A stretch of 64,000 bases of DNA from an uncultured Actinomycetes bacterium (lineage in GTDB: Bacteria; Actinomycetota; Actinomycetes; S36-B12): contig CAJXNV010000001.1 in assembly GCA_913057155.1 (NCBI GenBank), forward strand, positions 1,354-65,353, read 5' to 3'. A program made the translations under genes and the position numbers. Under the pieces are notes generated by a model. That model saw nothing but the letters and a program-made list of their open reading frames with translations. It was not told where the DNA came from and did not search any database. Shown piece after piece: positions 7,599 through 58,994 of the stretch; the stretch's first letter is position 1, and every line of letters begins with the position of its first letter.

Positions 7599-9045
7599 TT
7601 ACACCATCAGTGGCCGCGCCGATGCCCGGATGGGCGAGGGCAGGTTGGTCGTGCCCATCAGGTAGCGGTCGACGCTCGCAGCGGCGGCACGTCCCTCCGC
7701 GATCGCCCACACGATCAGCGATTGACCGCGGCCGGCGTCGCCGGCGACGAAGACGCCCTCGACATCGGTCGCGTACTCGTCATCGCGGGCGATCGCGCCG
7801 CGTTCGGTGAGCGGCAGACCGAACTGCTCGATCAGCGGCCCCTGCTCCGGTCCGGTGAAGCCCATGGCCAACAGCACGGTGTCGGCCGGGATGCTGCGCT
7901 CGCTGCCGGCGACCGGCTGGAAGGAACCATCGACGAACTCGACGTCGACTAGGTGCAACGAGCGCACGTGTCCGTCGGCATCGCCCTCGAAACGCTCGGT
8001 GGACACCGCGAACATGCGTTCGCCGCCCTCCTCGTGGGCGCTGGAGACCCGGTAGGTCATCGGGAAGGTCGGCCACGGCTGGCTCGCGGGTCGCTCATCG
8101 GAGGGCCGCGGCATGATCTCCAACTGGGTGACGCTCGCCGCCCCTTGCCGGTGCGCCGTGCCTAGGCAATCGGCTCCGGTGTCGCCGCCGCCGATGATGA
8201 CGACGTGCTGACCCTCGACATCGAGGGGGGATTCCTCGAGATCGCCTTCTTGGACCTTGTTGGACCAGGGCAGGAACTCCATCGCCTGGTAGATGCCGGT
8301 GAGTTCGCGTCCGGGGATCGGCAGGTCACGCCACGCGGTAGCGCCGGTGGCGATCACGATGGCGTCGTAGCGCCGCCGCAGATCCGAGACGGTGACATCC
8401 ACCCCGACCTCGACGTTCGGCCGGAACTTAACGCCCTCGGCCTCCATCTGCTCCAGCCGCTGATCGAGGTGACGCTTTTCCATCTTGAATTCCGGGATGC
8501 CGTAGCGCAGCAACCCGCCGATGCGGTCACCTCGTTCGTAGACGGCGACGGTGTGTCCGGCGCGCGCGAGCTGCTGGGCTGCGGCCAGTCCGGCCGGACC
8601 CGAGCCGATGACGGCGACCGTCTTCCCGGTGAGCGATTCCGGCGGCTGGGGCGTGATCCACCCCGATTGCCAAGCGCGATCGACGATCGCCACTTCGACC
8701 TGCTTGATGGTGACCGGTTCGGCGTTGATGCCCAGCACGCACGCCGCCTCGCAAGGAGCCGGGCACAGCCGCCCGGTGAACTCCGGGAAGTTGTTCGTGG
8801 CGTGCAAACGCTCGATCGCCTGACCCCAGTCGCGGTCGTAGATGAGGTCGTTCCACTCGGGGATCAAGTTGCCCAGCGGGCAACCTTGGTGGCAGAACGG
8901 GATGCCGCAATCCATGCAGCGCCCGGCCTGCTTCTCCAGCGAGCGGGCATCGAACTCCTCGTAGACCTCCGACCAGTCCTTGATGCGCACATCGACCGGA
9001 CGCCGCTTGGGCAGCTCCCGCTCGGTGGTCAAGAAACCGCGTGGA

Positions 9046-9053
<8 letters not shown>
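7599..9053 (-). CDS. gltD: glutamate synthase (NADPH) small subunit
   Basis: 484-aa ORF with the Fe-S Cys cluster [10 protein letters not shown] and the dinucleotide fold [18 protein letters not shown]. It overlaps the gltB stop by 8 nt. Confidence 0.93.
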
Positions 9054-13584
<4,531 letters not shown>

Positions 13585-13703: not shown

Positions 13704-14570
13704 CTACCGGGAGGTGGGGTTGCTGTCCTCAGGGGAGCCGGCTTGCGTGTCGGCGTCGGAATCCGCAGGCGTGAGCTCCTCGCGGCCCGGGCGGGTGCGA
13801 GCCGACCACACCAGGTACACCAGGGCACCGATGCCCACCAGGATGGAGGTCCAGACGTTCAAGCGCAGTCCCCCGACGGTGTTGACGGGGTCGATCCGCA
13901 AGGCCTCGATCCACCCACGACCGGTGACGTACAACAGCACGTACAGGGCGAATACGCGTCCGTGTCCCATCGTGAAGCGGCGATCGGCCCAGATGACCAC
14001 GACGGCGACCCCGACCAGCCACAGGGACTCGTACAGGAAGGTCGGGTGGAAGGTCGCGAACTCCTCGTAGCCGGCGGGGCGTTTGGCCTCGTCGATCTGC
14101 AGCGCCCAGGGCACATCCGTCGGTCGCCCGAACAGTTCCTGGTTGAACCAGTTGCCCCACCGGCCGATGGCCTGCGCGAGGGCGATGCCCGGGGCGATGG
14201 CGTCGGCGATCGGTGGCAGCGCCACATGGTGGCGACGCGCGGCGATCCATGCACCCAGCCCGCCCACGGCCACAGCGCCCCAGATGCCCAGGCCGCCGTC
14301 CCAGATCCGTAGGGCCGCGACGAAGCCGCGACCATCGGGGCCGAAGTAGATCTGCCAGTCGCTGAGCACGTGATAGATCCGACCCCCGACGATGCCGAAC
14401 GGCACGGCCCATAGCGCGATATCGGTGATCAGTCCGGGCGTTCCCCCGCGGGCGACGTAACGCTTGTTGCCCAGCCAGATGGCAACGACGATGCCCAGGA
14501 TGATGGCCAGGGCGTAGGCCCGAAGCGGTACCGGCCCTAAGTTCCAGGCGGCTTGGTCGGGACTGGGCAC
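13704..14570 (-). CDS. lgt: prolipoprotein diacylglyceryl transferase
   Basis: 288-aa polytopic membrane ORF with N-terminus PSPDQAAWNLGPVPLRAYAL and the GGRIYH motif. Its position downstream of trpA is the usual one in actinobacteria. Confidence 0.9.
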   Translation of the reverse strand: MPSPDQAAWNLGPVPLRAYALAIILGIVVAIWLGNKRYVARGGTPGLITDIALWAVPFGIVGGRIYHVLSDWQIYFGPDGRGFVAALRIWDGGLGIWGAVAVGGLGAWIAARRHHVALPPIADAIAPGIALAQAIGRWGNWFNQELFGRPTDVPWALQIDEAKRPAGYEEFATFHPTFLYESLWLVGVAVVVIWADRRFTMGHGRVFALYVLLYVTGRGWIEALRIDPVNTVGGLRLNVWTSILVGIGALVYLVWSARTRPGREELTPADSDADTQAGSPEDSNPTSR

Positions 14571-14573
14571 GTC

Positions 14574-15380
14574 TTAGCTGCCTGCGGCTTCGGTGACGGC
14601 GGCGAGCAACGCGGCCTGATCGGCGAGGGTCGCGTTGCCGACCTCCTGCCCGTCGATCGTGCCGAACGGCGTTCCCCCGACACCGGAGTCGTAGAACTCC
14701 TGGGTGGAGTTGGCCGCCCACGGGCGGTAGGTGCCATCGTTCACGCACTGTTCGAAGGTGTCGAAGGCCTCCCCGCTGATCCCGATCTCCTCGCCGATGG
14801 CGATGAAGTCCTCGTTCGGCCAGCCATCGCCCTCGACCTCGGGAACGTTGGCGTATAGGGCGTCGTGGAATTCCCGGGTGAAGCCGGCGTCGATGGCGCA
14901 GCCCCACGCGCCGATCGCGCGGTTGGAGGCGTCGTTACCGAGGTTGCGGTCCAAGAACCCGGTCGGTCGCCACACCAACTGGACCACGCCGGTCTCGGCC
15001 AACTCGGCCATGCCGGCGCCGTTGGCCTGTTCCAAGGACGCGCACGCCGGGCATTGGAAGTCCTCCCACAACTCCAGCACCGGGACGTTCTCCCCGCCCG
15101 TGCCGTAGGGAACGCCGTAGGCCCATTCGCTGTCGCCGCCGTAGACGCCCTCGGGTACCGGGGCGCTCGGATCGGGTTCGACTACCTCGATGCCGCTGGC
15201 GCTGCCGGAGCCCTCGCTGTTGCGGGCGATCACCGCGGCTCCGATGATGCCGGCGACGACGACCACGACCGCGGCTGCGCCGATCACTCGGACCGTGCGC
15301 TCGCGGCGCTTCTCGCCGGCCTGCGCGGCTTCCCGTGCGGCGGCGGCGCGCTCGCGGCGATCCCTACTTCCCGATGCCAT
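14574..15380 (-). CDS. membrane-anchored DsbA-family thiol:disulfide oxidoreductase
   Basis: 268-aa ORF with an N-terminal TM helix (VIGAAAVVVVVAGIIGAAVIA) and the thioredoxin-fold active site FQCPAC. Confidence 0.8.
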   Translation of the reverse strand: MASGSRDRRERAAAAREAAQAGEKRRERTVRVIGAAAVVVVVAGIIGAAVIARNSEGSGSASGIEVVEPDPSAPVPEGVYGGDSEWAYGVPYGTGGENVPVLELWEDFQCPACASLEQANGAGMAELAETGVVQLVWRPTGFLDRNLGNDASNRAIGAWGCAIDAGFTREFHDALYANVPEVEGDGWPNEDFIAIGEEIGISGEAFDTFEQCVNDGTYRPWAANSTQEFYDSGVGGTPFGTIDGQEVGNATLADQAALLAAVTEAAGS

Positions 15381-15417: not shown

Positions 15418-16244
15418 CTAATTCGCGGTGACCGGAATGCGATCCACCGGTCGGCGCACGCCCTCGGCGAGTTCCTCCGCGAACGCCCGCACCGAAGCGC
15501 GGGCCGCAGCGAGATCGCCGGCGTCGAGGATGCGTCGTACGAAAGCCGAGCCGACGATCACGCCGTCGGCGTACCCGGCGATGCCCGCAGCCTGATCGGC
15601 GCTGGACACCCCGAGCCCGACCCCGATCGGCGCCGTGGTGCGCTCGCGAACGCGCTCGACCAAGGTCGGCGCGGCGTTGCTGACCTGGTCACGCGCCCCG
15701 GTCACCCCCATGGTCGATGCCGCGTAGACGAAGCCGGTGCAGGCCTCGGCGACGGTCTGGATGCGGGCATCGGTGGATGAGGGAGCGACCAGGAAGGTGC
15801 GGTCGATGTCGTTGCTATCGGTCGCCGCGATCCACGGCCCCGCCTCCTCGGGGGTGAGGTCCGGGGTGATCACGCCGCTTCCACCGGCTGCGGCGAGCCG
15901 ATCGACGAAGGACTGCAGGCCGAAACGTTCGATCGGGTTCCAGTAGCTCATCACGACCGCCGCTTGGCTGTCCGATAGCGAGATGCGTTCGACTATCGAG
16001 AGGACATCCTCGGTGGTGGTTCCCTCCGACAGCGCGATCTGCACGGCGTCTTGGATCGCCACTCCGTCCATCAGCGGATCGGAGTACGGCAGACCGACTT
16101 CCACGAGGTCCACGCCCCCGGCGAGCATCTCGTCGATCAGCGCGACGCTGGCATCGATCGTCGGGAACCCGGCGGGTAGGTACCCGATGAGGGCGGCCCG
16201 GGATTCGGCTCGGGCATCGGCGAACAGCGCAGCGGTGCGCGGAT

Positions 16245-16248
<4 letters not shown>
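15418..16248 (-). CDS. trpA: tryptophan synthase alpha chain
   Basis: GTG 16246-16248 (VNPRTAALF) overlaps the trpB stop. Motifs [14 protein letters not shown] and GFVYAAS are present. The 382-aa track ORF is an over-extension. Confidence 0.92.
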
Positions 16249-17494
<1,246 letters not shown>

Positions 17495-17498
<4 letters not shown>

Positions 17499-18313
17499 AT
17501 CGCACTCCGGCGTCCGTGTCGAAGCGCCGGATGGGCACCGGCGGTGACGAGATCGTGTACGGCGGCCCGCGGATCCTTCCCGGTCACCAGGGCCTCCCCG
17601 ACGAGGACGGCATCGGCACCCGCCTCGGCGTAGGCGATCAGATCGTGCGGTTCACGGATCCCCGACTCGGCGATCTTGACGCAGTTATCGGGGATGAGGT
17701 GGGCGATGCGGGCGAAGACGGTGCGGTCGACTTCGAGGGTCTTCAAATCGCGCGCGTTCACGCCGATGACGTCCGCTCCGGCATCGAGTGCGCGGGTGAT
17801 CTCGTGCGCATCGTGGACTTCGACCAGCGGTGTCATCCCCAGGCTGCGGGTGCGCTCCACCAGCGAGACCAACGCATCCTGCTCCAGTGCGGCGACGATG
17901 AGCAGGACCAGATCGGCTCCGCATGCCTTGGCTTCCCACAGTTGGTAGCTGCCCACGATGAAGTCCTTGCGAAGCACCGGGATATCCACCGCGGCGCGCA
18001 CTTGCTCGAGATCGGCGAGGCTGCCGCCGAAACGACGCTCCTCGGTCAGCACGCTGATGCAGTGCGCTCCCCCTGCTTCGTACTGCACCGCGAGTTCGGC
18101 CGGATCCTCGATCGAGGCGAGCGGACCGCGGCTCGGACTTTGCCGCTTCACTTCGGCGATCACGCAGACTTGTTCGGTCGCCAGCATGCAGCGGGCGTTA
18201 CGGGCCGGTGGCACCGAACCCGCGCGCTCCTTCAACGCTTCGAGGGGTGTCTCGTCCATCCGACGGGCGACGTCCACGCGGACGCCGGCAACGATGTCTT
18301 CCAGGACGGTCAC
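17495..18313 (-). CDS. trpC: indole-3-glycerol phosphate synthase
   Basis: 272-aa ORF with [15 protein letters not shown] and [11 protein letters not shown] motifs. It overlaps the trpB start by 4 nt. Confidence 0.93.
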
Positions 18314-18397
18314 GGGCCCACAGTACGCCGGCTAGTTCCGCTCGGCACCGCCGCCATCGTGGGATCGCGGGCGCCGGTACTGGCTGGATCGTCGCGG

Positions 18398-18889
18398 CTA
18401 TCCGGGTCCGGAGCCCAAGTAGGGCACCAGGTTGCGCACCACCCCGAAGGCCAGCACGACGATCAACGCGGTGACCATCCATCTGCTGCGCTGGGCCTGC
18501 TGCGCGGGCGTGAGGTTGGGTCGACGCCCCGTCCAAGCCCGGTAGGCCCACACAGCGAAGGCGAACAGCAGTGCGGGTATCGCGACGATGAGCAGGATGT
18601 TGTCGTCGAGCATGCCGGCGATATCGCCGTGCAGGAGGTCGTAGGTGCCGCGCATCCCACCGCATCCGGGGCAGTCGACGCCGAGGAAGGTCTGGCTCGG
18701 GCAACCCGGATAGTGCCCGGGGACATTGGGATCGACGGCTCGCAGATACACGGCGCCGACGAGCGCGCCGATCGCCGTGGCAACGACCGGAAGCATCCGG
18801 CGTCGACGCGAACGACGATCGATTACGAAGTCGCTATTCGTATCGTCGACCGCGTTCGCGGCGTTCGCTGCGTCGGCTGCTTCAGGCAC
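18398..18889 (-). CDS. DUF2752-type small membrane protein
   Basis: It carries the CPxCG motif (VDCPGCGGMRG) followed by TM helices. I start it at GTG 18887-18889, 4 nt after the kinase stop. The alternative start is ATG 18796 (MLPVV). The 256-aa track ORF overlaps the kinase and is too long. Confidence 0.65.
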   Translation of the reverse strand: MPEAADAANAANAVDDTNSDFVIDRRSRRRRMLPVVATAIGALVGAVYLRAVDPNVPGHYPGCPSQTFLGVDCPGCGGMRGTYDLLHGDIAGMLDDNILLIVAIPALLFAFAVWAYRAWTGRRPNLTPAQQAQRSRWMVTALIVVLAFGVVRNLVPYLGSGPG

Positions 18890-18893
18890 GCGT

Positions 18894-20318
18894 TTACTGT
18901 ACGACCTCCGGCACCCGCGGCACCCGAACCCAAAAGCTCGTTCCCCCCGGCGGGTTGCTGGTGACCGTCGCCGAACCACCCATCCCCGATGCCAGACGGG
19001 CGACCAAGGCCAGGCCGAGCCCGGTCCCCACCGGACGCACCCCGCGAAAGCGCTCGTGCAGGGCCCCGGGCTCGAAGGCCACCCGCCGATCGTCATCGCT
19101 GAGGCCGGGTCCCTGGTCACGGACTTCCACGACGGCGAAATGTCCACCGGCAAGCGCGGAATCCGCATGCAGCGCCAGCACGATCGCAGATCCTTCCGGC
19201 GAGACCCGAAGTGCGTTCTCGGCGAGGTTGTCGATGATCTGGCGAAGCCGCCAGGCGTCGACGCGCACCATGACCGGCTGCTCGGGCACTTCGGTCCGGA
19301 ACTCGACCTGCTCGCGCGCGCAACGGTCCTGCCACACCAGCGCCGCCTCGCCTACCACCTCGCGAGCATCGACATCGACGAGATCGAAGTGGAAGTCCAC
19401 CGCGCCCAATCGCGCGAGATCGAGCAGATCGTTGACCAGGCGATCGAGCCGTTGCGCTTCGCTGGCCACGATCGAACCGACGGAGGGGATCTCCTGAGGC
19501 GGAACCATGTCCTCGGACAACGCCTCGCCGTATCCCTTGACGGCGGTGAGCGGTGTGCGCAGTTCGTGCGAAACCGACAGTAGGAAATCGCGTTGTCGAC
19601 CCTCGGAGACCACGAGCGCGGCGTTCAACGCGTTCAACGCCTCGGCGATATCGGCCACTTCCGCGGGGCCGCGGGGCGTCAAGGTGCGCTCGCGCTGGCC
19701 TTGGGACATCTCATGGGCCACTTCGCGCGCCGCGCGCAACGGTCGCGAGAGTCGGCGGGCAGCGAAGTAGGCGATGAACACGGCGATCAGCAGACCCAAA
19801 GCCAGCGCCAGGACGATGCGGACCAAGAACACTCCGGTGGCCTGCCCGGCCACCGCTAGTGGTTGGACCAACACGACACCCTTGCCGCCGGCAACCGGTC
19901 GGGCCTCGATGAGCAGCGACTCACCGTCGGGCCCTTGCCCCGTTGTCGAGATGGATTCCCCCGCGAGCAAGATCGCCAGATCCCGCTCGGTTAGTTCCGG
20001 CGGCCGACCCAGATCCGCCGAAACGATGTAGCCGGTCACTTGCTCCTGGGTCAGTACTTGTTGAAGTGCCCGCGGCAGTAGTCGATCGCCGCGGCCGGTC
20101 GAGTCCCGCCTATCGACGAAGGTCGTGGTCACATCGGCCAAGGTTGCGAGGGATCCACGCGCTTCGGTCTCGGCCGCAGCGCGGACGAACGGCGCCGCGG
20201 CCACGCCGGCCACGAGCACCGCGATCGCCGCGATCGCGGTCGCCAACAACACCGTTTGCAGCACGATCCCCGAACGCCGGCCGCCGCGAGCATCGCCGCG
20301 TTGCGCGATCCGGTTCAT
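18894..20318 (-). CDS. sensor histidine kinase (TM - ~150-aa extracytoplasmic domain - TM - HAMP - HisKA - HATPase_c)
   Basis: The H-box is FLLSVSHELRTPLTAV, and the N and G boxes are DNLAENALRV and GTGLGLALV. ATG 20316-20318 (MNRIAQRG) overlaps the response-regulator stop as ATGA. Confidence 0.9.
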   Translation of the reverse strand: MNRIAQRGDARGGRRSGIVLQTVLLATAIAAIAVLVAGVAAAPFVRAAAETEARGSLATLADVTTTFVDRRDSTGRGDRLLPRALQQVLTQEQVTGYIVSADLGRPPELTERDLAILLAGESISTTGQGPDGESLLIEARPVAGGKGVVLVQPLAVAGQATGVFLVRIVLALALGLLIAVFIAYFAARRLSRPLRAAREVAHEMSQGQRERTLTPRGPAEVADIAEALNALNAALVVSEGRQRDFLLSVSHELRTPLTAVKGYGEALSEDMVPPQEIPSVGSIVASEAQRLDRLVNDLLDLARLGAVDFHFDLVDVDAREVVGEAALVWQDRCAREQVEFRTEVPEQPVMVRVDAWRLRQIIDNLAENALRVSPEGSAIVLALHADSALAGGHFAVVEVRDQGPGLSDDDRRVAFEPGALHERFRGVRPVGTGLGLALVARLASGMGGSATVTSNPPGGTSFWVRVPRVPEVVQ

Positions 20319-21001
20319 GATCGATCGACTTCGCAGGAGTAGCCGACTCCCCTGACGGTTCGGATCGGGCTGTCCTCGCCGAGCTTGGCGCGCAGTTGCG
20401 CGACGTGGACGTCGACGGTCCGGGTGCCGACGACCGAGGCATAGCCCCACACTTCGGACAGCAGTTGGTCCCGACTCAGCACCCGACCCGGATCGCTCAT
20501 CAACCGGGCGAGGAGGTCGAACTCGGTGGCGGTCAGCGTTACTTCCGCACCGGCCACGTATGCGCGGCGCTGGGTGGTGTCCAAGGACAGCCGGCCGGCG
20601 GTCAGTGGGGCATCATCGGCACCGGTCAAACCGGCGCGGCGCACGAGTGACTTCACCCGGGCCACGACTTCGCGCGGGCTGAACGGCTTGGTGACGTAGT
20701 CGTCGGCCCCCATCTCCAGGCCGAGGATGCGATCGACTTCATCGTCGCGCGCCGTGCAGAACACGATGGGAACCCAGTTGCCCTCCTCGCGCAGGATCCG
20801 GCAAACCTCGGTGCCGTCCATGCCCGGCAGGCCCACATCCAGCACGACCGCGGATGGGTGCTTGGTGCGCGCAGCGGTCAGCCCGCTTGGACCATCGAAC
20901 TCGGCGTGCACGCCGAAGCCCTCGCGCTGCAAATAGAGCCGAAGCAGGTCCGAGATCGGTTTCTCGTCTTCGACGACGAGGATCAGGCCACGTTCACTCA
21001 C
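20315..21001 (-). CDS. OmpR/PhoB-family response regulator
   Basis: The receiver domain reads LILVVEDE...VVLDVGLPGMDG...KPF. The winged-helix C-terminus reads TRTVDVHVAQLRAKLG...IRTVRGVGY. GTG 20999-21001 overlaps the stop of the upstream small gene as GTGA. Confidence 0.9.
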   Translation of the reverse strand: MSERGLILVVEDEKPISDLLRLYLQREGFGVHAEFDGPSGLTAARTKHPSAVVLDVGLPGMDGTEVCRILREEGNWVPIVFCTARDDEVDRILGLEMGADDYVTKPFSPREVVARVKSLVRRAGLTGADDAPLTAGRLSLDTTQRRAYVAGAEVTLTATEFDLLARLMSDPGRVLSRDQLLSEVWGYASVVGTRTVDVHVAQLRAKLGEDSPIRTVRGVGYSCEVDRS

Positions 21002-21240
21002 GGGTCCGGTGTAGCCGACGGCGAGGCGGGCGCCTTCTTGCCCAGACCGGCGGCTTGCATGACCTTCCCGACGACGGCTCCGACGACGACGAGGCCCACC
21101 CCGACCCAGAACATCGGCCAGTTCCCCAGGACCACCGCCAAGGTGCCGACGGCGAAGGCGATGGTGATGATGATGACGGCGGTCCACGCAGCGGGGGTGG
21201 AGCCGTGATCGTCGTGCTCGGGAGTGACGGGTGTCGACAT
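20998..21240 (-). CDS. HGxxPAAW-family small membrane protein
   Basis: 80-aa ORF from ATG 21238-21240 containing the literal motif HGSTPAAW followed by two TM helices. Confidence 0.7.
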   Translation of the reverse strand: MSTPVTPEHDDHGSTPAAWTAVIIITIAFAVGTLAVVLGNWPMFWVGVGLVVVGAVVGKVMQAAGLGKKAPASPSATPDP

Positions 21241-21252
21241 ATCCCTATCCAA

Positions 21253-21924
21253 TCACTTCGGCGGCCGATCCTGGTCATCAGTGCTTGTTCCGGGGCTCGT
21301 TCCGGGGCTTGCTTCCGGCTCCGCATCGAGCGTGGGATCGATACCGCGATCGAGGGCCTCCCAGGCGTCCCGCGGCGCTTTGCTGCTTCGTTCGTACGAG
21401 CGGCCGAGCCCCGGCCAGGTGGGACCACGCACACCGATCACGATGCCTCCGAGCAGGGCGATGACGCCGCCGACCATGGCCAGGACCGGCGCGAGGGTGT
21501 CGGTGGTGACCTCGCGCGCATCACCCGGGGCGAAGGAATCCAGCCCATCGATGAACAAGGCCCAGAAAGTGCCGATCACGATCACCGCGGCGGCGGCGGC
21601 GATGAGCCCGCCGGTGATGCGGCGTCCCCAACCACGCGAACCGATCACCGCGGCGATACCGGCGAGCAGCAGCACGGGCATCGCAGCCACCGCCGGGAGC
21701 ATGCCCGATCCGCTGATCTCCACTACCCGCTGCGCCGCCGTGATCGTGGAGTCGAGTTCGAGTTCGAGTTCGAGTCCGCCGGCTGCACCATCGCCGGTGC
21801 CTAGGAGGGCTTCGGTCGCGGTGAGCCACGGTCGCGACAGCGCCCACCAAGAAAGCAGTGCTCCGCCGGCGACCGCGAGCACGGCGATGAAGTACTCGCG
21901 TTTCACGCGCGATGACGCACTCAC
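21253..21924 (-). CDS. Trp biosynthesis-associated membrane protein (TIGR02234-like)
   Basis: Polytopic membrane ORF. GTG 21922-21924 overlaps the trpE stop as GTGA. Its position directly after trpE is the defining context of this family. Confidence 0.7.
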   Translation of the reverse strand: MSASSRVKREYFIAVLAVAGGALLSWWALSRPWLTATEALLGTGDGAAGGLELELELDSTITAAQRVVEISGSGMLPAVAAMPVLLLAGIAAVIGSRGWGRRITGGLIAAAAAVIVIGTFWALFIDGLDSFAPGDAREVTTDTLAPVLAMVGGVIALLGGIVIGVRGPTWPGLGRSYERSSKAPRDAWEALDRGIDPTLDAEPEASPGTSPGTSTDDQDRPPK

Positions 21925-23552
21925 GAGGTCGGGCGCCCATGCGTCGGCTCGGACGGACTTCGTCGGGACATCGCGTCCGCGGTCGCGACGGCGCGGATCA
22001 CCGCACCGGCCTTGTTCGCGCATTCGAGCGCTTCGGCGCTGGGGTCGGAATCGGCGACGATCCCCGCGCCGGCTTGCACATGGGCCACCCCGGCTTGGAT
22101 CACCGCGGTCCGGATCGCGATAGCCACATCGACATCGCCGGAGAAATCGACGTAACCGACGACTCCCCCGTACAGGCCGCGGCGGGTCGGCTCGAGTTCA
22201 TCGATGATCTCCATCGCTCGAACCTTCGGCGCACCGCTCAACGTGCCCGCCGGGAAGGTGGCGCGTAGCGCGTCGAGCGCCGATGCCCCATCGCGCAGGT
22301 GTCCCACCACCGTGGAAACGATGTGCATGACATGGGAGTAACGCTCGATCTGCATGAACTCGGTGACATCCACGGTCCCCGGGGCGCAGACACGACCGAG
22401 GTCGTTGCGGGCCAGGTCGACCAGCATCACGTGCTCGGCCCGCTCCTTGTCATCGCCGAGCAATTCATCCGCGAGCGCTTGATCGCTCACCGGATCGGCT
22501 GCTCGCGGCCGAGTTCCCGCGATCGGGTGCACCGTGCAGTGCCGATCGCGGACCGTGACCAGTGCCTCGGGTGAGGAACCGACGATCTCGAAGGCGATCT
22601 CATCGCCCACTTCCTCGTTCTCGTTCTTGTTACCACCGCTGGAGGTAGCGGGCATCCGGATCAGGTACATGTAGGGGCTGGGGTTGGCCGAGCGCAGGAC
22701 CCGGTAGACATCGAGGCCGTCGGCGGACGTGGGCAGCGAGTACCGCTGGGATAGCACGATCTGGAAGGCATCACCGGCGGCGATGTAGTCCTTCGCGACG
22801 GCGACGGAGCGCAGGTAGTCCTCGGGACTGGTGTGCGCCTGGACGCTGGGCTCATCGACGTCCGGAACCTTGGTGACCGCGGTCGCGTGCCCCGCGGATA
22901 GATCGGCCTCCATCGAATCGAGTCGCGCGCAAGCGTCCTGCCAGGCCTCATCGACCCGCTCGTCGCTGGCATCGAAGTTGATGGCGTTCGCGATCAAGGT
23001 GACCGTGCCTTTGAAGTGATCCAACACGGCCAGGTCGGTTGCCAGCAAGAACGCCATCTCCGGAAGCTCGACCACGGGCGGGTTGGCATCGGGCAGTTGC
23101 TCGAAGTTGCGAACGGCGTCGTAGGACAGGTAGCCGACGAAGCCGCTGGTCAACCGCGGCCCGCTACCGGATTCATCGCGTGGGGTGTGCAGCACGCGGG
23201 CGGATTCGGCGAGGACCTCCCAAGCCGACCCGGAAGTAGGAAGGCCCACCGGAACACGACCGAACCACTGCGCCTGGCCGGCTTCCTCGGTGAGCATGGC
23301 CGCCGCGCGCACCCCCACGAAGGAGTAGCGCGACCAGGAACGACCGGCCTCGGCCGATTCCAGCAGGAACGTGCCCGCTCGCGATCCGCACAGTTGCTCG
23401 AACAACCCGACTGCGGTGAGTCCATCGGCGAGCAGGGTGCGCATCACCGGGATCACCCGATCGGACTTCGCCGCCTTCCGGAATCCGGCGAGGTCCAAGG
23501 AGGTCTCACCGTCCACCGGGATCCCCCTCGACCTCGAAGCAACTGAGCGCAC
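21921..23552 (-). CDS. trpE: anthranilate synthase component I
   Basis: Chorismate-binding C-terminus with [14 protein letters not shown] and [10 protein letters not shown]. The start is uncertain (GTG 23552 or GTG 23516), and either choice overlaps the hisI 3' end. Confidence 0.92.
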
Positions 23553-24662: not shown

Positions 24663-25439
24663 TCATGGCCGCGGCGGACCCCACTCATAGGGGTCGTATC
24701 GGGCCTCGATCGCCGCGATGGCCTCGGCCAGGGTGAAAGCGCCGTCGTACAGGGCCCGTCCGATGATCGCGCCCTCGATGCCATCGGAGGTCATGTCGGC
24801 GAGCTTGTGCAAGTCCTCGAGGTGCGAGATCCCGCCGGATGCCACGACCGGCGCCTTGGTCACCTTGCAGACCTCGTGCAACAGGTGGAAGTTCGGCCCC
24901 TTCATGGTGCCGTCCTTGTGCACGTCGGTGATCACGTAACGGGCGCAACCGGCGGCGTCGAGGCGACCGAGGGTCTCCCACAGGTCACCACCCTCGGTGG
25001 TCCACCCGCGCGCGGCGAGGGTGTGGTGCTTGACGTCCAAACCGACCGCGATGCGTTCGCCGTGCTCTCCGATCACCCGCTCGGTCCACTCCGGATCCTC
25101 GAGCGCGGCGGTGCCCAGGTTCACCCGGGTGGCGCCGGTCTTCAAGGCGGCCTCGAGCGTTTCGTCGGTGCGGATGCCGCCGGATAGTTCGATGCGCACG
25201 TGATCGCGCAGGGCGTGCACCACCTCGTTGATAACCCCCGCATTGCTTCCCCGACCGAAGGCGGCATCCAGATCGACGAGGTGTATCCAGGTGGCGCCCT
25301 GGTTCACCCACGAGCGGGCCGCTTCCAGGGGTGCGCCGTAGGTGGTCTCGGTGCCGGCCTTGCCTTGGACGAGTCGGACCGCTTGGCCATCGGCCACGTC
25401 CACTGCAGGCAGGAGTTCGAGGGTCTTGGGCTTGGTCAC
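24663..25439 (-). CDS. priA: bifunctional HisA/TrpF isomerase (PriA type)
   Basis: Motifs [18 protein letters not shown] and [14 protein letters not shown] start at 25437-25439. No separate trpF is seen in the adjacent trp genes. Confidence 0.85.
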
Positions 25440-25449
25440 GCCGCTAACC

Positions 25450-26088
25450 CTAGGTGAGGCTGCGGATCCAATTGCGTAGCACTGCCGCACCGGCATCACC
25501 GGACTTCTCCGGGTGGAATTGGGTCGCGCTCAACGCACCGTTCTCCACGGCGGCCACGAAACGACCTCCGTAATCGCACCAGCTGACCGACGGTGCACGG
25601 CGATACGCATCGGTGTCCACCCAATCCCACCTGCGCACCCCGTAGGAGTGCACGAAGTAGAAACGCTGATCCTCGACTCCTTCGAACAGCCGCGAACCGG
25701 CCGGGACATCGACCGTGTCCCAGCCCATGTGGGGTAGCACGGGCGCATCGAGCCTTTCCACCACACCCGGCCACATCCCCAGACCGTCGGAACGTTCGCC
25801 GTGCTCGACCCCCGCGGTGAACATCACCTGCATGCCCACGCAGATGCCCAGTACCGGGCGCCCTCCGGCGAGCCGGCCGTCGATGATCGACTCCCCGCCG
25901 ACCTCCGCGATCCCGCGCATGCACGCTGCGAACGCACCGACACCGGGAACGACCAAGCCATCGCACCCCAAGGCCTCATCGCGGTTCGCCGTCACGTGCA
26001 CGCTCGCACCGGCCCGCTCCAGCGCGCGCTGCGCCGAGCGCAGGTTCCCGCTTCCGTAATCGAGGACGACGACGCTGGGAGCGCTCAT
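25450..26088 (-). CDS. hisH: imidazole glycerol phosphate synthase glutaminase subunit
   Basis: 212-aa ORF with [13 protein letters not shown] and the catalytic-Cys region LGICVGMQ. Confidence 0.93.
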
Positions 26089-27857: not shown

Positions 27858-29171
27858 CTACTTCGGCTCGCGCAGGCGAACCGTGATGGCATCGCCGTGT
27901 CCGGGCAGGTCCTCGGCTTGGGCCAGCGCGACGACGTGCTCGGCGACATCGGCCAGTGCGGTGTGGTCGTAGTCGATCACGTGGATGCCGCGCAGGAACG
28001 ATTGGACGGACAAGCCCGAGGAGTGCCGCGCCGCACCCATGGTCGGCAGTACGTGGTTGGAGCCGGCGCAGTAGTCACCTAGCGAGACGGGCGCCCAGGG
28101 GCCCACGAAGATCGCACCGGCGTTTCGAACGCGCATAGCGACATCGCGGGCTTCACGGGTGTGGATCTCGAGGTGTTCGGCGGCGTAGGCATCGACCACT
28201 TGGAGTCCTTGTTCGATATCGCGAACCACGATCACCGCGCTTTGGATCCCGGTGAGGGCTTCGGTGATCCGTTCGGTGTGCTTGGTGTCGGCCACCTGGG
28301 CTCGGACCTCGTCGATGACGTCGTGGGCCAGTTGCTCGCTGGTGGTCACGAGCACCGCCGCGGCGATGACGTCGTGCTCGGCCTGACTGATCAGATCCGC
28401 TGCCACGTAACGCGGATCGGCGGAATCGTCGGCGAGGATCGCGACCTCGGTCGGTCCGGCCTCGGAGTCGATGCCGATGATCCCCTGCAATGCCCGCTTG
28501 GCGGCGGTGACGTAGATATTGCCCGGACCGGTGACCAGGTCCACGGGCTCGCAGCGCGCGGAATCGTCGAGTTCGACGCCGTAGGCGAGCATCGCGACGG
28601 CTTGCGCACCCCCGACCGCATAGACCTCCTCGACCCCGAGCAGGGCGCAGGCGGCGAGCACGGTGGGGTGCGGCCAGCCACCGAAATCGCGTTGCGGCGG
28701 GCTCACCACCACCAGGGATTCCACACCCGCTTCCTGCGCGGGCACCACGTTCATCACCACGCTGCTGGGGTAGACGGCGCGGCCGCCGGGGACGTACAGA
28801 CCCACCCGGGCGACCGGGAGCCAGCGTTCGGTGACCGAACCGCCGGGGACGACTTCGGTGATCACGTCCACTCGCCGCTGGTCGGCGTGCACCTTGCGGG
28901 CCCGCTCGATAGCGACCTCGAGGGCTGCGCGCACCGCTGGGTCGAGCCGCTCGAGGGCGTCGGCGATGACCGCGGCCGGCACCCTCAAGGAGTCCGGTCG
29001 CACGCCGTCGAACTTCTCGCAGGCATCGAGGACGGCAGCCGCCCCGCGCTCTCGGACATCGTCGAGGGTCGGTTGGATGATGGTTCCGGCATCGGCCAGA
29101 TCCATCGCGGCACGCGGAACTTCCGAGCGTGGATCCGCGGCGGAATCACGGACGTCGATGAGACGGAGCAC
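27858..29171 (-). CDS. hisD: histidinol dehydrogenase
   Basis: Motifs [17 protein letters not shown] and [15 protein letters not shown] start it at GTG 29169-29171 (VLRLIDVR), which matches typical HisD N-termini. The track start at 29234 would overlap the divergent gene. Confidence 0.9.
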
Positions 29172-29194
29172 GGCGTGAAGTCTACGCTCGAGGC

Positions 29195-51762: not shown

Positions 51763-53159
51763 GCGCTCTCCTCCTGCTCACCTAGCAGGTGCGCGGCAAC
51801 GGCTTCCAAACCGATTGCCCGTGACGCCTTGATCAACACGACGTCGCCGGGCTGCACCTCGGCGTCGAGCAGTTCGATGGCGGCGGCTACGTCGGGAACC
51901 CAGGCGGACTCCTCACCCCAGGATCCTTCGTTGCTAGCGGCCAAGTGCATCACCTTGGTCTGCGGACCCACACACACCAGGCGCGAGATGTCCAAGCGCA
52001 CCGCGAGACGGCCGATGGCGTCGTGCTCGGGCACGCTGAGTTCGCCGAGTTCGCGCATCTCGCCGAGAACGGCCCAGGTGCGCGAGCCCTGCGCCATCGA
52101 ACGCAACGCCTTCAAAGCCGCCCGCATCGACTCGGGGTTCGCGTTGTAGGCATCGTTCACGACGGTGACACCGGCTTCGGACCGACGCACTTCCATCCGC
52201 CATCGACTATCGATGCGGATATCGGCGAGCCGGTCGGCGATCACCGCGACAGGCACGCCGGTGAGATGCGCGACGCTGGCCGCGGCCAGGGCCGCGGATA
52301 CGAAGTGCTCTCCGTGCATCGGCAATCGGATGGTCTCGGAGACCTCGCCGGCGACGCTCAGCCGGAAGTTCGGACGACCGTGTTCATCGAGACGGATATC
52401 CAGAGCGCGGACGTCGGCGTCGGGGCTTTCCCCGAACCACACGATGCGTGCATCGGTCCGCGACCGCATCGCCGCGACCTGCGGGTCATCGGCGTTCAAA
52501 ACGGCGACGGCACTCGCGGGGAGGCCTTCGATGATCTCCCCCTTGGCCTGCGCGATATCGGCGGGCCCGTCCAGCATGCCGACGTGCGCCGTGCCGACGT
52601 TCAACACCAACGCGATGTCCGGCGTAGCCAACTCGGCTAGATAGCGAATGTGCCCAAGGCCGCGCATACCCATCTCGAGCACGAGGAAGTCGGTATCGGC
52701 TTCTGCGGCCAGGATCGTCAGCGGAACCCCGATCTCGGTATTGAACGAACCCCGGGCGGCCACGACGTCACCATCGAGCACTCCGGCGATCAGATCCTTG
52801 GTGGTGGTCTTGCCCGAGGATCCGGTCAGTGCGATGACGGTCGCGGTCAACACCTCGCGCCGATACCAGGCCGCGACCTGGCCCAGCGCCGCGACGCAGT
52901 CCTCGACGACGATGCACGGCAGCGGTGCGAGATCGCGCTCGCTGAGTACCGCGACCGCGCCGCGCTCGAGCGCTGCGGCGGCGAAGTCGTGTCCGTCCAC
53001 CCGTTCGCCGCGGGTAGCCACGAACACCTGCCCCGGTTCGATGCTGCGGGAATCGACGTTGAAGCCCTGTACGAGTGGCTGCTCTCCCAGCTCACCGGCG
53101 GGTTCGTTGAGTCGTCCCTGGACGATGTCTGCGAGGGCAGCCACCGCCAGTGCCTTCAC
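51759..53159 (-). CDS. murF: UDP-N-acetylmuramoyl-tripeptide--D-alanyl-D-alanine ligase
   Basis: 466-aa Mur ligase with the P-loop LTGSSGKTTTKD. Confidence 0.93.
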   Translation of the reverse strand: MKALAVAALADIVQGRLNEPAGELGEQPLVQGFNVDSRSIEPGQVFVATRGERVDGHDFAAAALERGAVAVLSERDLAPLPCIVVEDCVAALGQVAAWYRREVLTATVIALTGSSGKTTTKDLIAGVLDGDVVAARGSFNTEIGVPLTILAAEADTDFLVLEMGMRGLGHIRYLAELATPDIALVLNVGTAHVGMLDGPADIAQAKGEIIEGLPASAVAVLNADDPQVAAMRSRTDARIVWFGESPDADVRALDIRLDEHGRPNFRLSVAGEVSETIRLPMHGEHFVSAALAAASVAHLTGVPVAVIADRLADIRIDSRWRMEVRRSEAGVTVVNDAYNANPESMRAALKALRSMAQGSRTWAVLGEMRELGELSVPEHDAIGRLAVRLDISRLVCVGPQTKVMHLAASNEGSWGEESAWVPDVAAAIELLDAEVQPGDVVLIKASRAIGLEAVAAHLLGEQEESA

Positions 53160-58383: not shown

Positions 58384-58494
58384 GTCGGCTCCTCGTTCGC
58401 GGTCGAGTCGTGCTGGTGCATCTACTGGTCGTGTTGCTGTCGGAATTGGCCGGGTGTCGATATTCACCGTCCCGGTCAGGTCCCCGCCCGCTTT

Positions 58495-58532
58495 GCGCGT
58501 CCTGGCACCGGGGAAGGAGTGCCAGGGGGCGC
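58495..58532 (-). terminator. strong GC hairpin 30 nt downstream of mraZ (attenuator/terminator or part of a structured RNA)
   Basis: The minus-strand RNA is GCGC-CC-CCUGGCAC-[UCCUUCCCCG]-GUGCCAGG-AC-GCGC, giving 8 + 4 bp of stem. There is no U-tract. Confidence 0.5.
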
Positions 58533-58562
58533 CCAGCGGGTGGGGGCCTCACCGCAGGTGGG

Positions 58563-58994
58563 TCACAGCACCCCGGGGATCACCTCCTCGTCGATTCCGG
58601 AGAAGTCGTCTTCTTGCCGTCCGAGGTAGGTCTCCCAGGTGGCGGCGTCCCAGATCTCCGCCGTGCTGCCGTTTCCGACGACGATGACGTCGCGGTCGAG
58701 GCCGGCGTACTCGCGCAGTGCGGTCGGGACGGTCACCCGGCCTTGACGATCCGGGATCTCATCGGAGGCCCCGGAGAACAGCACCCGCAGGTAGGCACGA
58801 ACCCGAGCGTCGGATCGGGAGGCTTCGTTCAGGCGCTCGGAGTAGGCCGCGAACTCCGCCGCCGGCCAGACCACGATCGAACGGTCCTGGCCCTTGGTCA
58901 GGACCAGGCCGGCCGCGAGTTGCTCGCGGAACTTCGCCGGCAGGACCAGCCGACCCTTGTCGTCGAGTCGGGGAGCGTGGGTGCCCAAGAACAC
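58563..58994 (-). CDS. mraZ: transcriptional regulator MraZ
   Basis: 143-aa ORF with two SpoVT/AbrB-like halves ([13 protein letters not shown] and [13 protein letters not shown]). It is the first gene of the dcw cluster. Confidence 0.95.

Follow-up and report, generated by a model that had tools for sequence, protein, structure and literature searches.

What is a complete sensor-regulator pair doing inside a tryptophan biosynthetic cluster? The question is raised by a 64,000-nucleotide stretch of DNA from an uncultured Actinomycetes bacterium (contig CAJXNV010000001.1, positions 1,354 to 65,353; hereafter the window), in which the genes of a response regulator (RR) and a histidine kinase (HK) lie between trpE and trpC. 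More precisely, the pair sits between the genes of an HGxxPAAW protein and a DUF2752 protein, within a conserved cluster hisD...hisI-trpE-...-trpCBA-dsbA-lgt. An initial annotation, made from the letters of the window alone, described the pair as translationally coupled inside the trp operon. It proposed either that envelope or aromatic-metabolite sensing is tied to tryptophan synthesis or that a regulator hitch-hikes on a constitutive operon. The reading favoured here, with slightly better than even confidence, is that of an OmpR-type cassette which has been vertically inherited at a fixed site of the his-trp cluster, which regulates itself in most lineages, and whose position is historical rather than regulatory. 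It rests on the conservation of the locus among relatives, on a candidate control region upstream of the RR gene, and on the deletion of this region in the small subclade to which the window belongs.

A fixed site in the his-trp cluster

For the comparison with relatives, one genome per GTDB species was scanned with an alignment of the sensor half of HK. This yielded 80 loci, all from metagenome-assembled genomes (MAGs), with 20 kb taken per genome, and synteny was assessed by tblastn of twelve window proteins against them. The same colinear order of twelve genes is found in 80 of the 80 loci; both trpE and trpC are present in 66, while the other 14 are ended by contig ends. The identity of HK falls as low as 46% and the GC content of the locus ranges from 54 to 73% in this set. 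Since the order is kept in every locus, the arrangement is a fixed trait of the group, neither a chance occurrence nor a local event. Close HK homologues number in the thousands, and the few sources that name an organism give an uncultured MAG. The window HK itself has no exact match in public assemblies; the nearest relative is locus L008 (92% HK identity). Homologues with 61-62% identity lie on contigs, some from TARA Oceans and one of 1.4 Mb, that have the same order from the his genes to gltB, namely trpE, Trp_oprn_chp, DUF6704, RR, HK, DUF2752, trpC, trpB, trpA, thioredoxin, lgt and gltB. The labels 'uncultured Rubrivirga sp.' and 'Bifidobacterium breve', attached to the records of L008, L010, L012, L030-L032, L053, L054, L056 and L062, are almost certainly wrong.

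The view that this is not a standard arrangement is thus right in one sense and wrong in another. In the literature searched, there is no account of the arrangement, of these DUF families at such a site, or of two-component systems of Nanopelagicales; on the other hand, the arrangement is not peculiar to this genome, being fixed in its relatives. A preprint on heliorhodopsins (10.1101/2021.02.01.429150) describes heliorhodopsin genes near histidine kinases and glutamate synthase in freshwater actinobacteria, with no reference to this locus. Some of these cases of a nearby kinase might be explained by the one described here.

Every junction was read from the window sequence, where all the genes concerned are encoded on the minus strand; domains were assigned with Pfam and NCBIfam models, and membrane segments by hydropathy. 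The RR gene starts with GTG at 21001 and stops at 20315 (228 aa), and the HK gene starts with ATG at 20318 and stops at 18894 (474 aa), the two sharing an ATGA overlap. Upstream of RR, the gene of the HGxxPAAW (DUF6704) protein runs from ATG at 21240 to a stop at 20998 (80 aa), with a GTGA overlap with RR and a 12-nt gap (TTGGATAGGGAT) before its ATG. It follows the gene of a Trp_oprn_chp membrane protein (GTG at 21924, stop at 21253, 223 aa), which in turn shares a GTGA overlap with the trpE stop codon. Downstream of HK, the DUF2752 gene starts with GTG at 18889 after a 4-nt gap and stops at 18398 (163 aa), and a gap of 84 nt (18314-18397) separates it from trpC (GTG at 18313, stop at 17495). 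The junctions and the domains of all five genes between trpE and trpC agree with the initial annotation in its description of a complete pair at this site, of the three overlaps, and of the lengths of the two gaps. What these tight junctions mean is less straightforward, as is evident from the relatives.

A candidate control region of the response regulator gene and its loss in one subclade

In most relatives, the HGxxPAAW and RR genes do not overlap; they are separated by a spacer with a median length of 78 nt (junction gaps, here and below, are approximate and come from about 75 species). This spacer ends with TCTG(A/C)CAnnCT, followed by 6 nt and then ATG or GTG. An extended -10-like element, TGn[CT]AnnnT (A at -11, T at -7), lies 5-7 nt before the RR start; it is seen in no fewer than 53 of 79 loci, a count that rises once a few mis-called starts are corrected. 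Upstream of it are three direct repeats of [GT][AGT]AC with an exact 11-bp spacing, and a fourth box, nnACC, lies 11 bp beyond them, so that the consensus reads TTAC / TGAC / TGAC / nnACC. Examples are TTTACAGAGAA TTGACGGAAGG CTGACC in L017 and TTTACCAAATC TTGATCAAAGA TTGATCC in L050. Elements of the form GGGAAC...CGTAAC, found in one clade, were also considered as promoters of an extracytoplasmic function (ECF) sigma factor; this was rejected, their spacing being 5 nt and not 16-18 nt.

The repeat array is highly specific for this site. The three-box pattern is matched 36 times within 11.5 kb of sequence preceding RR, compared with 11 times in the remaining 2.56 Mb (both strands), and its position relative to the RR start codon hardly varies (-80/-81 and -70). 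With a position-weight matrix, 58 matches are obtained upstream of RR; the 3 found elsewhere in about 1.3 Mb from some 80 genomes are weak and dissimilar, and no trp or his gene start in this sequence has a match. Likewise, no repeat array is found within 200 nt upstream of the starts of trpE, Trp_oprn_chp, HGxxPAAW, DUF2752, trpC, trpB or trpA in the loci of the relatives. OmpR/PhoB-family regulators usually bind to phased direct repeats, and because the array suits such binding, the spacer is read as the promoter of a self-regulated, leaderless RR-HK transcript. This suggests that, in most lineages, RR may bind the three or four repeats about 80 nt before its own start and thereby control its own synthesis together with that of HK. 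The view that RR and HK form no unit of their own is at odds with these spacer-bearing relatives, whose promoter-like motifs before RR are of the kind that had been named beforehand as counting against it.

The window lacks this spacer. So do its closest relatives, L008-L010 (HK identity at least 79%), and the alignment shows in these four a deletion of about 55-80 bp by which all the repeats have gone. What is left of the -10 element is a decayed remnant at 21002..21021 (minus strand), GTCGGCTACACCGGACCC, directly ahead of the GTG; it corresponds to TCTGCCACGCTnnnnnn in relatives and to GTCTGCCACGCTAGGCAG in L011. All four genomes have lost the TG at -15/-14; the window, L008 and L010 also lack the T at -7. 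In its present form, the HGxxPAAW reading frame crosses the remnant and ends at the TGA of the GTGA overlap. Since the spacer has been deleted, the tight coupling of HGxxPAAW and RR in the window is a derived state. It follows from the spacer loss that RR-HK would be expressed here from upstream his/trp promoters with translational coupling. The promoters concerned are probably those of priA and/or hisD, 4.4 and 8.2 kb upstream, with read-through into the pair and termination-reinitiation at the GTGA and ATGA overlaps, and the window lineage has most likely lost self-regulation of RR-HK.

It might be argued that the pair in the window keeps a promoter of its own, either because the TACACC remnant still fires or because a site inside the HGxxPAAW coding sequence does so, in which case the coupling would be irrelevant. 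The remnant does retain T at -12 and A at -11, L009 keeps CACACT with T at -7, and weak -10 elements are tolerated by actinobacterial promoters (PMC3898074). This is nevertheless quite improbable, because the remnant lacks both the T at -7 and the TG at -15/-14 as described, the entire upstream repeat region is deleted, and the GTGA overlap suits termination-reinitiation. A generic scan of 13.5-29 kb also detected no sigma-70-like promoter, and three terminator-like sites against 5.5 expected, although such a scan is uninformative because the genome is of high GC content. Expression of the pair from upstream promoters is therefore retained below as the probable state of the window.

Probable transcription units of the cluster

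At the other junctions of the cluster, the median gap is -4 nt at trpE/Trp_oprn_chp, RR/HK, trpC/trpB and trpB/trpA, 11 nt at Trp_oprn_chp/HGxxPAAW and 9 nt at HK/DUF2752, while it reaches 53 nt at DUF2752/trpC. Two of these junctions carry a further signal. TANNNT is the mycobacterial -10 element: in Mycobacterium tuberculosis, 73% of primary transcription starts are preceded by it at a distance of 7-12 bp, and many mRNAs of this species are leaderless (PMC3898074). With this spacing, the hexamer at -12 to -7 from a start codon is a signature of a leaderless transcript, and it was scored as TANNNT at these positions with no Shine-Dalgarno sequence. Such a hexamer, 6-7 nt ahead of the start codon, is found at trpC in 68 of 75 loci and at DUF2752 in 61 of 79, whereas the starts of trpE, Trp_oprn_chp, HGxxPAAW, RR, HK, trpB and trpA have it in 0-5 of 68-82 loci.

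In the window, the candidate leaderless promoter of DUF2752 (18890..18904, minus strand) consists of a -10 TACAGT at 18901-18896, 6 nt, and the GTG; it overlaps the HK stop codon TAA (18896-18894). Among the relatives, the motif often begins in the HK stop codon, and it stays by DUF2752 despite the inserts that part the two genes in L078, L080, L083 and L085. Because the motif is conserved, the 4-nt HK/DUF2752 junction is more likely a promoter overlapping the HK stop than a case of coupling. The 84-nt spacer before trpC (18314..18397, minus strand) holds a second candidate, with a -10 TACTGT at 18325-18320, then GGGCCC and the GTG at 18313. DUF2752 and trpCBA would thus keep leaderless promoters of their own.

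Two further candidates lie upstream, on the minus strand as well. At hisD, which heads the his-trp cluster, TAGACT is followed by 7 nt and the GTG at 29171 (29171..29186), and at priA, TAGGGT just past the hisH stop codon is followed by 7 nt and the GTG at 25439 (25439..25454). In a permissive test among relatives, the motif is present at hisD in 39 of 39 loci and at priA in 52 of 53. The his cluster, which in the window reads hisD-hisC-hisB-hisH-priA-hisF-hisI and leads directly into trpE, therefore also looks split into leaderless units, and the priA motif is the conserved promoter-like motif nearest upstream of RR-HK in the window. On the minus strand of the window between 13 and 30 kb, TANNNT-N5-7-RTG opening a reading frame of at least 70 aa occurs only at hisD, priA, DUF2752 and trpC. 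Collectively, the cluster looks like several nested transcription units, beginning at hisD, priA, RR, DUF2752 and trpC. In one subclade (L005-L007), a DUF5946 gene is present between hisH and priA (about 2365-2865).

The description of a single translationally coupled operon accordingly needs to be qualified. Its three overlaps are real in the window, but TANNNT precedes DUF2752 and trpC, and the relatives have the RR spacer. On the other hand, no terminator was found inside the cluster, including the 84-nt spacer before trpC; the folding of this spacer is no stronger than that of shuffled sequence (z = 0.41), and an Rfam scan of the cluster for a Trp leader, T-box or attenuator gave no match. 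Because the cluster has no terminator, Rfam element or unusual fold, read-through between the units remains likely.

The remaining genes of the cluster extend on the minus strand in the same direction. At its upstream side, trpE (23552..21921) overlaps the end of hisI; it is identified as anthranilate synthase component I by an equivalog model (NF010086, 744 bits against a cut-off of 693) and by PF00425 and PF04715, and trpC also passes its equivalog model. Downstream of trpC, trpB (16245-17498) and trpA (15418-16248) each overlap the preceding gene by 4 nt, and they are followed by the genes of a DsbA-like thioredoxin (14574-15380), by lgt (13704-14570) and by gltB, encoding the glutamate synthase large subunit (9046-13584), which likewise lies 3' of lgt in L001-L006. 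Far from the cluster, an mraW RNA (RF01746) is detected at 58458-58565 on the minus strand (Rfam 70.6 bits, E = 4e-13). Since this RNA is the leader element of the cell-division/cell-wall (dcw) cluster, that cluster is probably located at this end of the window.

Sensor kinase, membrane neighbours and the tryptophan question

The RR belongs to the OmpR/PhoB family, with PF00072 (94 bits, residues 7-117) and PF00486 (93 bits, residues 151-222). It stays below the NCBIfam equivalog cut-offs of CreB (233 vs 273), PhoB (215 vs 296), MtrA (212 vs 300) and CseB (204 vs 350). The solved structures nearest to it are RegX3 (185 bits) and MtrA (180 bits), and no orthology is assigned because these scores are nearly equal. 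HK consists of a first membrane segment (about residues 19-43), an outer domain, a second membrane segment (about 160-186), HAMP, HisKA with H251, and HATPase_c. In an alignment of 25 homologues, H251, N364, D401/G403/G405 and G431/G433/G435, of the H, N, G1 and G2 boxes, are invariant. HK likewise falls short of the equivalog cut-offs of MtrB (128 vs 450), WalK (153 vs 725) and BaeS (132 vs 500), and solved kinases align to its cytoplasmic core only. Naming the system MtrAB, CseBC, CreBC, PhoBR or SenX3-RegX3 was considered and rejected, because no curated cut-off is reached and RegX3 and MtrA are nearly tied. A GC-rich 8-bp hairpin followed by GAGTGTTCTT, at 19835-19855 on the minus strand within the part of the HK coding sequence for membrane segment 2, was flagged as terminator-like; it is probably fortuitous, since such sites are below the chance expectation for the region.

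The outer loop of HK, put at about 150 aa in the initial annotation, is shorter: the two hydrophobic segments leave about 116 aa (residues 44-159 or so, 19842..20189, minus strand). A Pfam scan, in line with the HMM search of the loop that had been suggested, found no sensor family in it. For some homologues, precomputed annotations list PF26769. In the AlphaFold2 model of the domain (pLDDT 88, pTM 0.80), a long helix at the N-terminus precedes a small alpha/beta unit, and helices and strands come in the order expected of a PDC fold. The top Foldseek matches of the model, all statistically weak and none significant, come from the outer parts of kinases and chemoreceptors, where they are PDC/Cache sensor domains: mmHK1S-Z2 and Z3, McpA, TlpB (TM-score 0.64-0.68) and RisS. 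The outer domain is thus predicted, with moderate confidence, to be PDC/Cache-like and to face outward. HK would read an extracytoplasmic signal through this domain and then phosphorylate RR.

Against this background, the possibility that the pair serves tryptophan synthesis can be weighed. HK would in that case sense tryptophan, indole, another aromatic compound or an envelope state tied to tryptophan, and RR would adjust the trp (and his) genes. The site between trpE and trpC does not vary among the 80 genomes, translational coupling joins the pair to the trpE block in the window, the flanking small membrane proteins come from trp-operon-associated families, and RR matches trpC in conservation (median identity 74% across 79 species vs 76%). 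This is nevertheless unlikely. In the roughly 1.3 Mb scanned, the candidate binding array is confined to the RR upstream region and absent near trp and his starts, and the 64 kb of the window contain no convincing copy: KDAC-N7-KDAC-N7-KDAC has one match, inside a coding region, against 0.65 expected, the matrix gives a single unconvincing match at 52427, and no regulon member was identified by these scans. The sensor is predicted to be extracytoplasmic, whereas the intermediates of the Trp pathway are cytoplasmic; trpC keeps a constitutive-looking TANNNT promoter; and the cluster contains no attenuator or leader RNA. The fixed position is weak evidence in itself, because lgt and the DsbA-like gene are equally fixed and have no role in tryptophan synthesis. 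Sensing of tryptophan or aromatic metabolites, as first proposed, is thus unsupported, since the array occurs only upstream of RR and the sensor loop models as outward-facing, and there is no evidence for a new mode of regulation of tryptophan synthesis. The other proposal, a regulator hitch-hiking on a constitutive operon, fits the window better than Trp sensing. Most likely, the place of the pair by the trp genes is positional and historical, not regulatory.

A different reason for the fixed site would be a partnership of HK with its membrane neighbours. All three are small polytopic membrane proteins. The Trp_oprn_chp protein, which adjoins trpE, has about four membrane segments; it matches PF09534 (90 bits vs a cut-off of 29.6) and fails the stricter TIGR02234 model (16 bits vs 71), so the earlier label 'TIGR02234-like' is apt. 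The HGxxPAAW protein matches NF041681 (77 bits vs 33) and PF20447, with the motif HGSTPAAW and two membrane segments. The DUF2752 protein matches PF10825 (54 bits vs 27) and has three membrane segments and a C-x10-CPGC cysteine motif. Tryptophan makes up 3.1% of the Trp_oprn_chp protein and 3.8% of the HGxxPAAW protein, against 0.4-0.9% in trpE, trpC, RR and HK. These residues could be membrane-interface tryptophans, or they could make translation sensitive to the tryptophan supply.

HGxxPAAW and/or DUF2752, perhaps with Trp_oprn_chp, might then be accessory partners of HK, as LpqB is of MtrB and CseA of CseC, and the module might report envelope or lipoprotein/disulfide status along with the downstream DsbA-like gene and lgt. 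In favour of such a module are the invariable place of the cassette exactly between HGxxPAAW and DUF2752, the short HK/DUF2752 gap and the envelope genes 3' of trpA. The neighbours can, however, be parted from the cassette. In L023, a gene on the opposite strand for a polytopic membrane protein of 196 aa (8563-9153, minus strand) lies between HGxxPAAW and RR, with the RR promoter motifs intact downstream of it. In the divergent subclade of L080 (about 11400-13074) and L083, a gene for a signal-peptide protein of about 550 aa, possibly a lipoprotein, lies between HK and DUF2752, and this junction has 582 nt of extra sequence in L078 and 318 nt in L085. Because insertions are tolerated there in L023, L080 and L083, both borders of the cassette are supported as unit boundaries. 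DUF2752 has in addition its own promoter-like motif, and the same membrane proteins are presumably present in other actinobacterial trp clusters from which a kinase is absent. For M. tuberculosis, the operon is given as trpE-Rv1610-trpC-trpB-trpA, with no kinase (PMC5573416). A working partnership of HK with HGxxPAAW or DUF2752 is possible, while the co-sensor module as the explanation of the site is rather doubtful. A still stronger version, in which the pair and all three membrane proteins form one group-specific signalling unit for an envelope or exported aromatic cue, slaved to his/trp expression in the subclade of the window, has little probability.

Comparison with known systems places the historical reading in context. 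MtrA/MtrB has the same kinase domain order, an OmpR-family regulator and high conservation across a whole lineage. In contrast, neither of its equivalog cut-offs is reached here, no lpqB-like gene follows HK, its place being taken by DUF2752 in the window and the relatives examined, and the genomic context is his-trp. Self-regulation via direct repeats is typical of SenX3/RegX3-class systems, and RegX3 of M. tuberculosis is the best solved-structure match of RR. SenX3, however, uses a cytoplasmic PAS domain and is not known to have a large extracytoplasmic loop, whereas the kinase described here has HAMP and the outward PDC-like domain predicted above. With EnvZ/OmpR, PhoR/PhoB and PhoQ/PhoP, the system shares a winged-helix output, three or four candidate direct repeats with 11-bp spacing upstream of a promoter, and, by prediction, a small PDC-like periplasmic sensor. 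No equivalog among them is matched, and the TTAC/TGAC repeats and the leaderless layout are particular to this lineage. The Streptomyces sigE-cseA-cseB-cseC operon also has an OmpR-type pair downstream in a larger operon, partly reached by read-through. The CseB model gives the 204 bits mentioned above, short of its cut-off; no sigma factor or lipoprotein gene is present here, and the host operon is biosynthetic. The trp cluster of M. tuberculosis has the same backbone of trpE, the Trp_oprn_chp protein, trpC, trpB, trpA and lgt, the last presumably following trpA there too. This lineage adds HGxxPAAW, RR, HK and DUF2752, whereas the M. tuberculosis operon is listed with neither a kinase nor a regulator (PMC5573416).

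Several points weigh against a self-regulated cassette whose position is historical. The -10 element of RR has C, not T, at -12, and its core TCTGAC resembles the repeat unit, so that it could be a binding site instead of, or besides, a promoter. All promoters and leaderless starts proposed here come from motif conservation alone, and the fold matches for a PDC/Cache sensor are weak (best E-value 0.019). The scans span 20 kb per genome, so that a regulon outside the cluster is beyond their view, and a single trp half-site would escape them. Taxon labels were taken from record titles, which mostly read Candidatus Nanopelagicales, Actinomycetes or Actinomycetota, and some of them are plainly wrong. 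Finally, a position so strictly kept over such divergence could itself mean a functional tie to the flanking genes. The historical reading remains the preferred one: a housekeeping, envelope-type sensor cassette would have entered the membrane-protein segment of the cluster in a single insertion and kept this place ever since.

The components of this system are ordinary. New are the context conserved throughout the group, the predicted self-regulatory site, and the loss of the promoter in the subclade of the window. No experimental genetics on these organisms was found in the literature searched. For this two-component system, which is among the best conserved in the group, the analysis supplies a concrete candidate regulatory site and a map of candidate promoters. 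A his-trp-lgt region built as a chain of leaderless units would also affect operon calling in high-GC genomes, where a 4-nt gap is usually taken to mean coupling. In the subclade of the window, a deletion of only some 55-80 bp would have left a formerly self-regulated sensor cassette to be carried along on a biosynthetic transcript. If the pair is indeed slaved to his/trp expression there, it would be a natural case of a two-component system moving from self-regulation to the dosage of a metabolic operon.

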